NCBI RefSeq assembly: GCF_003991155.1
Contig: NZ_CP031293.1
Source: Escherichia coli
Lineage (GTDB): Bacteria; Pseudomonadota; Gammaproteobacteria; Enterobacterales; Enterobacteriaceae
Direction: 5' to 3' (one strand)
DNA length: 64,000 bases
Positions 3,263 through 6,890 of the stretch are shown here, in pieces; within the stretch, counting starts at the first letter, position 1, and each line of letters starts with the position of its first letter. A program made the position numbers and the translations under genes. Below the pieces are notes generated by a model. That model did not search any database. It worked only from the letters and a program-made list of their open reading frames with translations, and had not been told where the DNA came from.

Positions 3263-3337
3263 TAACCTCCCGTGGAAAAGAGACGAGGTAATCGGGGAAC
3301 CGGATGAGCATCGCTGCATCATCCGGCAAATCAAGCC

Positions 3338-4117
3338 TTAGTAGCTGCTGGCGCTCTTACCGTCGCCGTGGCCCAGAGCCTTCAGCAGGCTTGCCAGCAG
3401 GCTGGAAGCACCAAAGCGGTAGTGACGCGCATCAGCCCAGTCAGCACCGAACAGTTCATCGGCGATGGAGAGATATTTCTGCGCATCTTCCGCAGTACGC
3501 ACGCCGCCCGCCGGTTTGAAACCAACGGTTTTTTCTACGCCCATATCGCGGATCACTTCCATCATGATGCGCGCGCTTTCCGGCGTCGCATTCACAGCCA
3601 CTTTACCGGTAGAGGTTTTGATGAAGTCAGCACCCGCTTTGATGGAGATTTCAGACGCTTTACGGATCAGCGCTTCGTCTTTCAGTTCTCCGGTTTCAAT
3701 AATCACTTTCAGCAGGACGTTCGCCGCAGCGCAAGCCTCTTTACAGGCTTTCACCAGGTCAAAACCAACCTGCTCGTTACCCGCCATCAGCGCGCGGTAC
3801 GGGAACACCACGTCAACTTCATCGGCACCGTAGGCGATTGCCGCACGGGTTTCTGCCAGCGCGATTTCGATGTCGTCGTTACCGTGTGGGAAGTTAGTTA
3901 CCGTAGCGATACGGATTTCCGGGGTGCCCTGCTCTTTCAGAGTTTTGCGAGCAATCGGGATAAAGCGAGGATAGATACAGATAGCGGCGGTATTGCCGAC
4001 CGGAGTTTTGGCCTGATGACACAGTGCGATCACTTTCTCATCGGTGTCGTCGTCATTCAGGGTGGTCAGGTCCATCAATTTCAGTGCACGCAGGCTGCTT
4101 GCTTTCAGATCAGTCAT
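3338..4117 (-). CDS. deoC: Deoxyribose-phosphate aldolase
   Basis: ORF 3338..4141; internal Met gives a 259-aa product [24 protein letters not shown]...; first gene of the deo operon. Confidence 0.92.
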
Positions 4118-4161
4118 TTCATTCTCCTGGCTTGTCGCCAATAAAATTCACCTTGCGAGTT

Positions 4162-4177
4162 TGTTAGTATTCTAACA
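4162..4177. promoter_or_regulatory. DeoR operator (O2, deoP2-proximal), near-palindrome TGTTAGTATTCTAACA
   Basis: 16-bp palindrome about 45 bp upstream of the deoC start; exactly 599 bp from the second copy at 4761. Confidence 0.75.
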
Positions 4178-4374
4178 TCTACTTCGCAACACACTTCGAT
4201 GTACATCACAATTAAGGAAATCTACTTACAAGTTTGCATCACTGTAATGCGATCTGGTTCAAATAATTCACTTTCAAATGAATGCGTCAGTGGTGGCAAA
4301 CGCATCAGGATCAAAGTGAACATCACGAAACTTCTTACAATGGCGCATCACCTTCGGCATAAAAGGAAAAGAAG

Positions 4375-5925
4375 ATGCCCACTTCTCATGAAAATGCACT
4401 GCAACAACGTTGCCAGCAAATTGTCACCAGCCCGGTACTTAGCCCGGAGCAGAAGCGCCATTTTCTGGCACTGGAAGCAGAAAACAATCTGCCTTACCCC
4501 GCGTTGCCTGCCGAAGCCCGCCGCGCGCTGGATGAGGGGGTAATCTGCGATATGTTTGAAGGTCATGCGCCGTACAAACCGCGCTATGTCTTACCCGATT
4601 ACGCCCGTTTTCTGGCGCACGGTTCCGAATGGCTGGAGCTGGAAGGCGCGAAAGACCTTGATGACGCACTCTCTCTGCTGACCATTCTTTACCACCACGT
4701 ACCGTCGGTCACATCGATGCCGGTCTACCTGGGGCAACTGGATGCGTTGTTGCAACCGTATGTTAGAATTCTAACACAAGACGAGATCGATATTCGAATA
4801 AAACGTTTCTGGCGTTACCTCGACAGAACCCTGCCAGATGCCTTTATGCACGCCAATATCGGCCCGTCTGATTCGCCCATTACCCGCGCAATCTTACGTG
4901 CAGACGCAGAGTTGAAGCAGGTTTCACCGAACCTGACCTTTATCTACGATCCTGAAATCACCCCTGATGACCTGCTGCTGGAAGTGGCGAAGAACATCTG
5001 TGAATGTAGCAAACCGCACATCGCCAACGGTCCGGTGCATGATAAAATTTTCACAAAAGGGGGCTACGGGATTGTGAGCTGTTACAACTCACTGCCGCTG
5101 GCGGGTGGTGGCAGCACGCTGGTACGCCTAAACCTGAAAGCCATTGCCGAGCGCAGTGAATCGCTGGAGGACTTCTTTACGCGCACTCTACCGCACTACT
5201 GCCAACAGCAGATCGCCATCATCGATGCGCGGTGTGAATTCCTCTATCAACAATCACACTTCTTTGAGAATAGCTTCCTGGTGAAAGAAGGGCTGATTAA
5301 CCCTGAACGTTTTGTGCCAATGTTTGGCATGTACGGACTGGCGGAAGCAGTTAACTTACTGTGTGAGAAAGAAGGAATTGTCGCACGTTACGGTAAAGAA
5401 GCCACCGCAAATGAAGTGGGTTATCGCATCAGCGCGCAACTGGCGGAGTTTGTCGCCAATACCCCTGTGAAATATGGCTGGCAAAAACGCGCCATGTTAC
5501 ACGCACAGTCGGGGATCAGTTCCGATATCGGCACCACGCCGGGCGCGCGTTTACCATATGGCGATGAGCCAGATCCGATTACCCATCTGCAAACTGTCGC
5601 CCCGCATCATGCTTATTATTATTCCGGCATCAGCGACATTCTGACGCTCGACGAAACCATCAAACGTAATCCGCAGGCGCTGGTACAGCTTTGCCTCGGT
5701 GCCTTTAAAGCCGGAATGCGTGAATTTACCGCCAATGTCAGCGGTAACGATCTGGTTCGCGTTACTGGTTATATGGTGCGTTTGTCGGATCTGGAAAAAT
5801 ATCGTGCCGAAGGTTCACGTACCAACACCACCTGGCTGGGCGAAGAGGCCGCACGCAACACTCGTATTCTGGAACGCCAGCCGCGCGTGATAAGCCATGA
5901 ACAGCAGATGCGCTTTAGTCAGTAA
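4375..5925 (+). CDS. yjjI: Glycyl-radical-enzyme-like protein YjjI (DUF3029)
   Basis: 516-aa ORF; C-terminal RVTGY motif resembles the glycine-radical signature RVSGY; followed by an overlapping radical SAM activase gene. Confidence 0.85.
4761..4776. promoter_or_regulatory. DeoR operator (O1, deoP1), perfect palindrome TGTTAGAATTCTAACA
   Basis: Perfect 16-bp palindrome; the 599-bp spacing from the 4162 site matches the known O1–O2 distance; lies inside the annotated yjjI ORF. Confidence 0.75.
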
Positions 5926-6760
5926 GATTATCCCCTTCTCCTGCGTTGACGGGCCAGGCAGTCGTCTGGCTCTGTTTTTGCAGGGCTGCAATCTGCGCTG
6001 CAAAAACTGTCACAATCCGTGGACGATGGGACGTTGCAATGATTGCGGGGAGTGCGTGCCACAGTGTCCGCATCAGGCGTTGCAGATTGTTGACGGCAAA
6101 GTGGCGTGGAACGCTGTAGTCTGCGAGCAGTGCGATACCTGCCTGAAGATGTGTCCGCAACATGCCACACCAATGGCGCAATCCATGAGCGTGGATGAGG
6201 TGCTTAGCCATATCCGCAAAGCGGTGCTGTTTATCGAAGGGATAACGGTAAGCGGCGGCGAAGCCACGACCCAGCTGCCGTTTGTGGTGGCGCTGTTTAC
6301 TGCTATCAAAAATGATCCGCAACTGCGCCACCTCACCTGTCTGGTGGACAGTAATGGCATGTTGAGCGAAACCGGCTGGGAAAAATTGCTTCCGGTGTGC
6401 GACGGCGCAATGCTCGATCTCAAAGCGTGGGGGAGCGAATGTCATCAGCAATTAACCGGACGCGATAATCAGCAGATCAAGCGCAGCATCTGTTTGCTGG
6501 CAGAGCGCGGTAAGCTGGCGGAACTGCGTTTGCTGGTAATCCCTGGCCAGGTGGATTATTTGCAACACATCGAAGAACTGGCGGCGTTAATCAAGGGACT
6601 TGGCGATGTTCCGGTACGCCTGAACGCGTTTCATGCCCACGGCGTGTATGGCGAGGCGCAAAGCTGGCCGAGCGCCACGCCGGAAGACGTTGAGCCGTTG
6701 GCTGATGCGTTACAGGAGCGCGGGGTGAGCCGGTTGATATTTCCGGCGCTGTATTTGTGA
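5897..6760 (+). CDS. yjjW: Glycyl-radical enzyme activating enzyme (radical SAM) YjjW
   Basis: 287 aa; N-terminal CNLRCKNC (CxxxCxxC radical SAM motif) plus ferredoxin-like Cys clusters ([24 protein letters not shown]); start overlaps the yjjI 3' end. Confidence 0.85.
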
Positions 6761-6763
6761 CAT

Positions 6764-6890
6764 GCCGGATACGGCCTACGGATCGGCATAAACTTGTAGG
6801 CATGATAAGACGCGTCAAGCGTCGCATCAGGCATTGTGCGCCAGCTGCCGGATGCGGCGTGAACGCCTTATCCGGCCTACGGCACGTTAA
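6764..6890. repeat. REP/BIME-type repetitive extragenic palindromes
   Basis: Repeated GCCGGATGCGGCGTGAACGCCTTATCCGGCCTAC-like units between convergent yjjW and yjjV. Confidence 0.7.

Follow-up and report, generated by a model that had tools for sequence, protein, structure and literature searches.

The window analysed here, a 64-kb stretch of Escherichia coli DNA, carries the three DeoR operators (O2, O1 and OE) of the deoCABD operon, whose two tandem promoters, deoP2 and deoP1, they repress by DNA looping. O1, deoP1 and OE lie within yjjI, the divergently oriented neighbouring gene, whose codons over these sites have been fixed by the demands of DeoR binding. We assign this reading as a whole a probability of roughly 0.93.

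The DeoR operators and the deo promoters

The features on the deo side of the locus, and the operators themselves, are as follows.

3338..4117, minus strand: deoC, the first gene of deoCABD (open reading frame list; RefSeq annotation of the identical E. coli locus)
4162..4177, strand not applicable: DeoR operator O2, TGTTAGTATTCTAACA, which reads TGTTAGAATACTAACA on the minus strand and has one mismatch to the palindrome
4195..4210, minus strand: promoter-proximal CRP site of deoP2, TGTGATGTACATCGAA (pattern scan; conserved)
4211..4247, minus strand: expected CytR region of deoP2, between the CRP sites (high conservation)
4248..4263, minus strand: distal CRP site of deoP2, TTTGAACCAGATCGCA, offset by 53 bp from its proximal counterpart (pattern scan; conserved)
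4761..4776, strand not applicable: DeoR operator O1, the perfect palindrome TGTTAGAATTCTAACA, with no mismatches
4795..4814, minus strand: conserved block immediately upstream of the deoP1 -35 position, covering the yjjI codons CGA ATA AAA CGT TTC TGG
5040..5055, strand not applicable: DeoR operator OE, TGATAAAATTTTCACA, lying 279 bp beyond O1 and 878 bp beyond O2

O2 and O1 lie 599 bp apart, measured from start to start (4761-4162). When both strands of the window were searched for the O1 palindrome allowing up to three mismatches, these two sites were the sole matches. Dinucleotide-preserving shuffles of the window (n=100) yielded a mean of 0.14 such matches, and two or more matches in none of the 100 cases. 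The preliminary description had reported both operators and their spacing, with exact coordinates, and its assignment of them to DeoR at deoP2 and deoP1 agrees with published reviews (PMC3334521, PMC8053113). In this literature, a distance of 599 bp separates deoP1 from deoP2, both promoters have a DeoR operator, and repression works via looping (PMC3334521); the tandem promoters are described as carrying O1 and O2 at a spacing of about 600 bp, OE being located about 300 bp farther upstream, the loops have been visualised by electron microscopy, and O1-O2 looping in vivo has been estimated at about 72% (PMC8053113). The binding of DeoR to identical sequences and the lifting of repression by deoxyribose-5-phosphate are likewise taken from the literature (PMC3334521, PMC8053113).

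Comparison across species indicates that the sites, rather than their precise spacing, are conserved. In 75 species O2 is retained in the alignment, varying at its positions 4, 6, 7, 11 and 12, and both O1 and O2 are found at the homologous position in all orthologous loci in which deoC adjoins yjjI, bar one (L084). The spacing of "exactly 599" bp given in the preliminary description holds for E. coli but not elsewhere, since it ranges from 579 to 675 bp in other species (mode 601). Because this variation spans a complete turn of the helix about the mode, we rejected the idea that the 599-bp spacing reflects helical phasing. The chance that the two palindromes are A/T-rich inverted repeats devoid of function is negligible: their shortness (16 nt) is the sole point in favour of this, against which stand the excess over the shuffled sequences, the match of both to the published operator and spacing, and the retention of both positions across families of Enterobacterales.

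The inventory of operators in the preliminary description was correct for O1 and O2 but overlooked a third site, OE. This sequence differs from the palindrome at four positions while retaining the frame TG.TA....T..CACA. A search allowing up to four mismatches returned six matches where 2.1 were expected, and OE is not significant by its sequence alone. Codons 222-227 of yjjI, (C)AT GAT AAA ATT TTC ACA, encode it; 65 of 77 species share the identical site, which lies at offset +665 in all 76 orthologous loci outside Proteus. Its distance of 279 bp from O1 fits the third operator of the literature (PMC8053113). The operator papers of 1986-87 reportedly give the same 279 bp for OE. Variants of E. 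coli YjjI that lack OE through an in-frame deletion are present among database proteins, and no such deletion was found among 5423 complete genomes.

The surrounding sequence fits the deo promoters. Both O2 and O1 were seen, on reading the sequence, to contain an extended -10 element, TGT TAGAAT: O2 overlaps that of deoP2 (minus strand, 4177..4169) and O1 carries that of deoP1 (minus strand, 4776..4768). With this element of the promoter lying inside the operator in each case, bound DeoR would be expected to occlude RNA polymerase. The two CRP sites, spaced by 53 bp, adjoining O2 and upstream of deoC, fit deoP2; they place its transcription start provisionally near 4162, 40.5 and 93.5 bp downstream of the sites, a geometry that is classical for this promoter. 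The start of deoP1, the weaker of the deo promoters, is likely to lie near 4761, as judged from the -10 element within O1. In enterotoxigenic E. coli (ETEC), the proximal CRP site lies under a CRP ChIP-seq peak (PMC4287617), and anti-activation by CytR and CRP has been described at deoP2 (PMC3454398). A further CRP motif, at 4698-4713 within yjjI, also corresponds to an ETEC ChIP peak; it was set aside, as it displays no synonymous constraint (rank 923/1533 among yjjI windows). A consensus promoter scan called neither deoP1 nor deoP2, because the -35 hexamers of both are weak, and its sole plus-strand match (5021-5048) was at chance level.

According to the literature, multimeric DeoR bridges O2, O1 and OE into DNA loops and thereby shuts both deo promoters. 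At this locus, O1, deoP1, OE and probably the block upstream of deoP1 are dual-purpose stretches, which also encode part of YjjI on the opposite strand.

Constraint on yjjI codons over the operators

The deo genes lie on the minus strand, with deoA, deoB and deoD further left than deoC, and diverge from yjjI on the plus strand.

4375..5925, plus strand: yjjI, encoding a YjjI-family glycyl radical enzyme of unknown function, 516 aa (open reading frame list and annotation)
5897..6760, plus strand: yjjW, encoding the activase for YjjI (TIGR04041, 398.7 bits against a cut-off of 250.2)

O1 begins 386 nt into the 516-codon reading frame of yjjI, close to the figure of about 390 bp suggested previously, and falls within codons 129-134 (TAT GTT AGA ATT CTA ACA). 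The preliminary description had raised the alternative that the yjjI start is over-called, in which case O1 and deoP1 would truly be intergenic. A few database entries for YjjI are indeed shorter, for example one of 402 aa that starts at Met115, yet even this codon (4717) lies upstream of O1, and OE would be intragenic whichever start were used. Moreover, the protein matches TIGR04040 at 785.8 bits (cut-off 498.3) over residues 11-504 (model positions 1-497) and PF11230 over residues 22-504, so that both family models span the region encoding O1 and OE; orthologues down to 65% identity align from residues 1-12; codons 2-128 vary in a coding pattern dominated by the third position (entropy 0.39/0.28/1.26 at positions 1/2/3); and a Shine-Dalgarno sequence, AAGGA, precedes the ATG at 4375 by 8 nt. 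Model coverage that begins at residue 11 in one family and 22 in the other, together with the conserved N-terminus, leads us to regard the over-called start as refuted, and we give it hardly any credence.

To what extent the operators have shaped the gene was assessed with yjjI sequences from 77 species, scored in 16-nt windows (n=1533) and in six-codon windows (n=511); because the sampled species are related, the resulting statistics are relative to the rest of yjjI and are not formal probabilities. Among the 16-nt windows, OE is the most conserved (rank 0/1533), followed by the block upstream of deoP1 and then by O1. The fourth most conserved is the 29-nt overlap of the end of yjjI with yjjW, by which the method is positively controlled within the gene itself. 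Third-position entropy is 0.046 over O1 and 0.11 over OE against a yjjI mean of 1.15 in the 77 species. The two operators occupy ranks 1 and 2 among the 511 six-codon windows, and none of 20000 random sets of six codons had a third-position entropy as low. O1 keeps its offset of +386 in 76/76 loci outside Proteus and matches the palindrome perfectly in 55 of the 77 sequences, and the offsets of both O1 (+386) and OE (+665) hold even in a lineage with merely 66% YjjI identity. The rare codons AGA131, CTA133, CGA141 and ATA142 are fixed and cluster at O1 and the deoP1 block.

The lineages without the operator sites, namely Proteus (L078-81), L084 and L085/86, provide the counterpart, as both codons and residues vary freely there. 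Their gene neighbourhoods differ: in Proteus deoC is not adjacent to yjjI, L085 is without deoC, and in L084 deoC is adjacent. Residue 131 of YjjI is Gly in these lineages, within PYVG-x-L-T/S, and Arg or Lys in Enterobacteriaceae, while the segment at OE is frozen as [HN]DKIFT in OE-bearing lineages and variable where OE is missing. Synonymous variation is therefore suppressed over the sites and released in orthologues that lack them, the pattern expected of dual-use constraint. As judged from these alignments, selection for DNA binding has fixed both synonymous positions of yjjI and residues of YjjI wherever the operators exist.

It is very unlikely, in our view, that the frozen codons at O1 and OE instead reflect a constraint on the YjjI protein or on its translation, such as a pause at rare codons. 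The occurrence of AGA, CTA, CGA and ATA within 12 codons lends this idea some appeal, as such clusters are sometimes proposed to act as pauses. However, the fixed sequence is that of the experimentally defined operator and recurs in the non-coding O2, orthologues without operators have other residues and freely varying codons at these positions, and the protein segment at OE is variable beyond the operator-bearing clade.

The conserved block upstream of deoP1 calls for a more cautious reading. The window starting at 4799 has the second-lowest entropy of all 16-nt windows in yjjI, the rare codons CGA (unique in yjjI) and ATA are fixed within the block, and its minus strand presents the A/T-rich sequence AAACGTTTTATTCG at about -34 to -48 of deoP1. 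It is a candidate for a part of deoP1 that resembles an UP element. Because AAA, CGT and TTC are preferred codons, the signal may owe something to codon bias; the KRFW motif encoded by AAA CGT TTC TGG is invariant and found in Proteus too, and codon preference together with this motif may be a partial cause of the conservation.

Convergence of deoP1 with a predicted yjjI promoter

The region between the two operons, and the part of yjjI that follows it, contain the predicted elements of yjjI transcription.

4301..4314, plus strand: predicted FNR site of the yjjI promoter, CGCATcaggATCAA (prediction; a ChIP peak lies nearby)
4336..4341, plus strand: predicted yjjI -10 element TACAAT (nearly all of the 75 species aligned have TACAAT or TACACT)
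4349..4761, both strands: region expected to be transcribed both ways, as yjjI mRNA (plus) and deoP1 leader (minus), from the geometry

Within the predicted FNR site, the promoter-proximal half-site GGATCAAA is the only half that is invariant across species. An FNR ChIP peak has been reported at 4,615,181 (U00096.2) and yjjI listed as directly activated by FNR (PMC3688515); by a coordinate conversion anchored on a sigma-54 motif, this peak corresponds to about position 4282 of the window. The yjjI transcript is predicted to start near 4348-4349, 26 nt ahead of the ATG. The predicted promoter faces deoP1, so that by geometry the two would share about 410 nt of convergent transcription. Transcripts from deoP1 would run for about 640 nt to deoC, antisense across the first 129 codons of yjjI and head-on into its predicted FNR-dependent promoter, and RNA polymerase starting from that promoter would have to pass DeoR at O1 and OE. 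An antisense course of deoP1 transcripts through the 5' region and promoter of yjjI, as proposed in the preliminary description, is indeed required by geometry if they are to reach deoC.

Several other candidate elements in this region were rejected. Within the deoP1 leader, a hairpin resembling a terminator (4413-4401) was at chance level and is not conserved. Two antisense open reading frames in the leader (4566-4348 and 4669-4439) are interrupted by stop codons in most species, and hence give no evidence for an antisense gene. No Rfam families were found within 3300-6800. Romero 2014 and Kim 2012 do not mention deoC or yjjI, and a preprint on 3'-end mapping has no deo entry.

Whether this arrangement has consequences for yjjI can be considered at three levels. 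Physiologically relevant mutual interference between deoP1 and the yjjI promoter, through polymerase collision or antisense pairing, is possible but on balance doubtful: the promoters are opposed at a distance of about 410 bp and the deoP1 leader has full complementarity to the 5' UTR and first 129 codons of yjjI, but the two may seldom be co-active, since deoP1 depends on the DeoR inducer and yjjI on FNR and anaerobiosis, and deoP1 is the weaker deo promoter. We are similarly hesitant about the suggestion that yjjIW is a hidden member of the DeoR regulon, with O1 and OE acting as roadblocks and the O2-O1 loop enclosing the yjjI promoter, an arrangement that is compatible with looping repression of deoCABD and does not exclude it. 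In its favour are the geometry of the yjjI promoter relative to O2, O1 and OE, the high predicted occupancy of the loop (PMC8053113), and gene order: deoCABD adjoins yjjIW in 74 of 80 orthologous loci (in two others the flanks stop short of where deoC would be seen) and in three of five extra loci, and a gene for a NupC-family nucleoside transporter adjoins yjjW in 15 loci. Against it, yjjI clusters with FNR- and nitrate-regulated genes and not with deo (PMC3228777, PMC3688515), L084 retains the adjacency of deoC and yjjI without intragenic operators, and the 29 papers that mention yjjI, going mostly by titles and the openings of abstracts, include nothing on DeoR.

A still more speculative proposal, which we think improbable, is that the DeoR loop and roadblocks together with head-on transcription from deoP1 gate the FNR-activated yjjIW genes by deoxynucleoside availability, and that YjjI has a role in the anaerobic metabolism of nucleosides or deoxyribose. 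If this were true, the conserved deoCABD-yjjIW(-nupC) neighbourhood would reflect that role.

Comparison with known systems and significance

The element corresponds to the DeoR system of E. coli deoCABD and is in fact the same locus, with a 16-bp operator, an O1-O2 distance of 599 bp, a third site at about 300 bp (here 279 bp), a deoP2 controlled by CRP and CytR, and deoC downstream; the element itself presents no difference. Looping at deo goes back to Dandanell & Hammer 1985, Valentin-Hansen et al. 1986, Dandanell et al. 1987 and Amouyal et al. 1989 (cited in PMC8053113 and PMC4217526). As this looping system is a classic one, its finding here adds nothing new in itself. In the deo literature examined, we found no mention of the position of O1, deoP1 and OE in the yjjI frame or of its effects on codons, and we view the locus as a known system to which the codon-level constraint in yjjI adds a modest new evolutionary detail.

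Operators that lie in frame within a gene and loop with a promoter operator, so that the same DNA serves coding and binding, are also represented by lacO2 in lacZ and galOI in galE. Those sites, however, belong to the very operon that they regulate, being located in one of its genes on the downstream side of the promoter, whereas at deo two operators and a whole promoter are embedded in an unrelated neighbouring gene of opposite orientation. The coliphage 186 promoters pR and pL, at which convergent transcription leads to transcriptional interference, resemble deoP1 and the yjjI promoter in their opposed orientation and in an overlap of transcription over a few hundred bp, but in the deo-yjjI case interference would follow from the geometry and the position of the yjjI promoter is predicted. 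Suppression of synonymous variation where a second function overlaps the frame is shared with the yjjI/yjjW overlap, the second function there being the initiation of yjjW translation and at O1 and OE the recognition of DNA by a protein.

The overlap has practical implications for genetic work on this locus. Any deletion or replacement of yjjI, the usual knockout of its whole reading frame included, would remove deoP1, O1 and OE as well; this loss should weaken DeoR repression of deoCABD, so that phenotypes ascribed to yjjI may be deo effects. Similarly, genome recoding of AGA, CTA or ATA would destroy O1 or the block upstream of deoP1. The locus offers a clean natural example of regulatory DNA that fixes the codons and residues of a neighbouring gene, with the site-lacking lineages as controls. 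Finally, the overlap provides a testable lead to how YjjI is regulated and perhaps to what it does, no substrate being known for this glycyl radical enzyme.

Operators of the deo operon within the yjjI reading frame

The window is part of an E. coli chromosome. Of 5426 complete E. coli genomes, 5423 contain its region 3300-6000 at ≥95% identity, and the locus is annotated as deoC / yjjI / yjjW. The preliminary description reported two DeoR operators here, 599 bp apart, the distal one inside yjjI. O2 and O1 do lie 599 bp apart from start to start, and O1 begins 386 nt into the yjjI ORF; a third operator, OE, had been overlooked. The features of the locus are as follows.

Features of the deo-yjjI locus (window coordinates)
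4117, - strand: ATG of the deoC ORF
4162-4177: O2, proximal palindrome, TGTTAGTATTCTAACA
4195-4210: proximal CRP site of deoP2, 53 bp from the distal CRP site
4248-4263: distal CRP site of deoP2
4306-4313: invariant GGATCAAA, ATCAA half-site within a poor FNR site (4301-4314; 75-species alignment)
4336-4341: conserved hexamer TACAAT/TACACT (75-species alignment)
4375-5925, + strand: yjjI, 516 aa
4698-4713: weak CRP motif CGTACCGTCGGTCACA, inside yjjI, 48-63 bp from O1
4761-4776: O1, distal, perfect palindrome, TGTTAGAATTCTAACA
5040-5055: OE, TGATAAAATTTTCACA, 279 bp beyond O1 and 878 bp from O2
5897-5925: 29-nt yjjI/yjjW overlap, from the yjjW start to the end of yjjI
5897-6760: yjjW, downstream of yjjI

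O1 and O2 are the sole matches with up to three mismatches in the 64 kb (shuffled controls gave a mean of 0.14 matches, and two matches in 0 of 100 shuffles). These palindromes are the classical DeoR operators. The promoters deoP1 and deoP2 drive the deo operon and are repressed by DeoR, locked in a DNA loop, and lie ‘599 bp apart’ (PMC3334521), the very spacing to which the pair had been matched. DeoR binds the single operators O1 and O2, ~600 bp apart at a tandem promoter pair, with a third site, OE, ~300 bp farther upstream (PMC8053113); looping spans ‘up to 900 bp naturally’ (PMC4217526). The distances of OE from O1 and O2 agree with these last two values.

An over-called yjjI start had been offered as an alternative to an operator lying within coding sequence. 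This reading fails on several grounds. YjjI reaches 785.8 bits (cut-off 498.3) with TIGR04040, the NCBIfam model for YjjI-family glycyl radical enzymes, its residues 11-504 covering model positions 1-497, and Pfam PF11230 spans residues 22-504; the alignment begins at residues 1-12 in 80 orthologous loci. In an alignment of 76 deoC-clade orthologues and the window (four Proteus loci excluded), entropy over codons 2-128 is 0.39, 0.28 and 1.26 at positions 1, 2 and 3, as in the pattern of the rest of the gene. The shortest alternative YjjI annotation starts at Met115 (4717), still upstream of O1. Thus, yjjI is genuinely coding across O1. Two antisense ORFs in the deoP1 leader (- strand, 4348-4566 and 4439-4669; 72 and 76 codons) were rejected as conserved genes, with stops in 64 and 67 of ~80 species.

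Double constraint on codons and operators

We then compared orthologous yjjI loci from 80 species, each represented by a single locus. A site resembling O1, with at most 2 mismatches, lies exactly 386 nt from the yjjI start in 76 of 76 non-Proteus loci (Escherichia, Citrobacter, Salmonella, Enterobacter, Lelliottia, Kosakonia, Kluyvera, Hafnia, Edwardsiella and other genera), and the divergent neighbour is deoC in 74 of these, the flanks being truncated in the other two. O1 occupies yjjI codons 129-134 (TAT GTT AGA ATT CTA ACA, Y V R I L T) and OE codons 222-227 ((C)AT GAT AAA ATT TTC ACA, H D K I F T); the O1 series and, from GAT onwards, the OE series are nearly invariant in codon alignments, and synonymous positions of the flanking codons vary freely. 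When yjjI was scanned with a sliding 16-nt window (1533 windows, 77 sequences), the lowest entropy fell on OE, the second-lowest on 4799-4814, next to the deoP1 -35 position on its upstream side, and the third distinct minimum on O1, followed by the overlap of yjjI with the start of yjjW, an internal positive control. Third-position entropy is 0.046 for O1 and 0.11 for OE (gene mean 1.15), and none of 20000 random 6-codon sets was as low. O1 is perfect in 55 and OE identical in 65 of the 77 sequences; the non-coding O2 is less uniform, occurring in 15 variants and being identical in 25 of 75. Rare codons cluster in the region: AGA131, CTA133, CGA141 (the sole CGA of the gene) and ATA142.

Lying within the reading frame, O1 and OE keep a constant distance of 279 bp; this and the 878 bp to O2 are also the exact OE figures reported in the original operator papers. 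Between O1 and O2 the distance is 579-675 bp across species (mode 601) and is therefore neither conserved nor phased: the ‘exactly 599’ of the preliminary description is right for the E. coli window and holds in 7 of 75 species.

Lineages differing in these sites serve as natural controls. One divergent lineage (loci L082/L083, YjjI identity just 66%) retains adjacent deoCABD, O2, O1 (+386) and OE (+665 from the yjjI start). Locus L084 (70% identity) has adjacent deoC and the CRP pair, lacks O1 and OE, and reads TAC GTC GGC GCA CTG AGC at the O1 position. Loci L085/L086 and Proteus have neither deoC nor operator sites, yjjI in the four Proteus loci standing beside smp-serB-radA; in Proteus mirabilis (L080, 528..3732) it directly adjoins these genes, which in E. 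coli lie beyond deoCABD. Gene order therefore indicates that Proteus lacks a deoCABD-containing block here, either because one lineage acquired it by insertion or because the other lost or relocated it. The operators were either gained in an ancestor of Enterobacteriaceae and Hafniaceae or lost elsewhere.

Since site-lacking lineages carry PYVG-x-L-(T/S)-E at the O1 position, Gly131 is probably ancestral, and GGA to AGA (Arg) or AAA (Lys) is a change toward the operator. The OE position is highly variable in these lineages (LQDAVFG, LHDEVFS, LQQQAFD, IHAEFFA and others) and fixed as [HN]DKIFT in the operator-bearing clade. Frozen codons, together with this variation, show that selection acts on the DNA; it has also dictated the sequence of two otherwise permissive segments of the YjjI protein. 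Two E. coli YjjI variants in the database lack the OE codons through in-frame internal deletions (window ~4960..5220, codons ~197-280): P0084 (452 aa, on 176 contigs, PHIA joined to IIDAR between ATCGCCA repeats) and P0013 (476 aa). An OE-removing deletion occurs in 0 of 5423 complete E. coli genomes.

Promoters in and around the loop

On the - strand, O2 reads TGTTAGAATACTAACA and includes an extended -10, TGT TAGAAT, identical to that of O1. The CRP pair, 53 bp apart beside O2 as in the known deoP2 layout, places the deoP2 start near 4162, and deoP1 should start near 4761 on the - strand, given the same -10 in O1. O1 and O2 differ from the CRP core TGTGA-N6-TCACA by just 2 mismatches. A CRP ChIP-seq peak motif in ETEC is the proximal deoP2 CRP site, and a second peak with the weak motif CGTACCGTCGGTCACA lies within yjjI, 544 bp from the first (PMC4287617). 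This motif shows no synonymous-site constraint (rank 923 of 1533), and the peak might stem from weak binding of CRP close to O1 or from cross-linking via the DeoR loop. Being palindromic, the operators also carry extended -10-like elements on the + strand (O1, 4764-4769, TGT TAGAAT; O2, 4165-4170, TGT TAGTAT; OE, 5043-5048, TGA TAAAAT). The lone match in a promoter scan was that of OE, at chance level; sense-direction initiation from these operators within or toward yjjI is conceivable.

yjjI is listed as a direct target of FNR activation, its ChIP peak lying at 4,615,181 of U00096.2 (PMC3688515). Converted via the sigma-54 motif at 4,613,489, this peak falls at about window 4282; the motif itself, CTGGCTCTGTTTTTGCA (5966..5982, + strand), is a sense-oriented intragenic sigma-54 site in yjjW detected by genome-wide ChIP (PMC4591121). 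In addition, both E. coli and Salmonella show co-expression of yjjI with nar genes (PMC3228777). Conserved islands in the deoC-yjjI intergenic region of 75 species comprise the deoC Shine-Dalgarno sequence, O2, both CRP sites with the segment between them, the FNR half-site and the TACAAT/TACACT hexamer. From these islands we predict that yjjI has a promoter of the FNR type (class II) with its start near 4349. By geometry, deoP1 (leftward) and this predicted promoter (rightward) would face off across ~410 bp, the latter enclosed by the O2-O1 loop, and polymerase on yjjI would have to pass O1 and OE occupied by DeoR. Such an arrangement might lead to interference, a roadblock or co-regulation. 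Judged mostly by titles and abstract openings, none of 29 papers mentioning yjjI appears to be concerned with DeoR, and the literature searched contained no functional study of YjjI or YjjW.

Nucleoside neighbourhood and known systems

The deoC leader of Hafnia, Edwardsiella and two further Enterobacterales exceeds that of E. coli by ~150 nt. It contains a variable hairpin between two invariant blocks, GCGGTGAGAGGGAaCTCA ... TCTTCAaGGAaCCAAGTCCGCTCGCCAAcG, and GCTCGCCAAC is able to pair with GTTGGAGAGT, the deoC Shine-Dalgarno sequence. The long leader has no Rfam match, and its pairs are all invariant and so give no covariation support; it is a candidate for sequestering the ribosome-binding site. 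In 15 loci a convergent NupC-family nucleoside transporter gene, not at this position in E. coli, lies immediately 3' of yjjW, so that yjjIW sits between deoCABD and the transporter.

Features of orthologous loci
Long deoC leaders, - strand: L072 3534-3760, L073, L075 3525-3730, L077, L082 3595-3775, L084 3594-3790
NupC-family neighbour, ~6.4-7.7 kb in each: L035, L052, L056, L058, L059, L061-L063, L066, L070, L075, L077, L082-L084

What lies here is the already known O1/O2/OE system of the E. coli deo operon, and it will not surprise a specialist. Operators within coding sequence also occur in lacZ (lacO2) and galE (galOI), its closest analogues; unlike these, deo has two operators and an entire promoter embedded in an unrelated gene that is read from the opposite strand. 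Our additions are modest: OE, the refuted start-codon alternative, the predicted yjjI promoter position, the codon/residue double constraint with its natural negative controls, and the finding that 599 bp is not conserved. In practice, yjjI knockouts may be confounded and codon recoding would be hazardous. Residual interest also lies in a possible link, in regulation or function, between YjjIW and nucleoside catabolism, hinted at by the conserved deoCABD synteny and the NupC neighbour.
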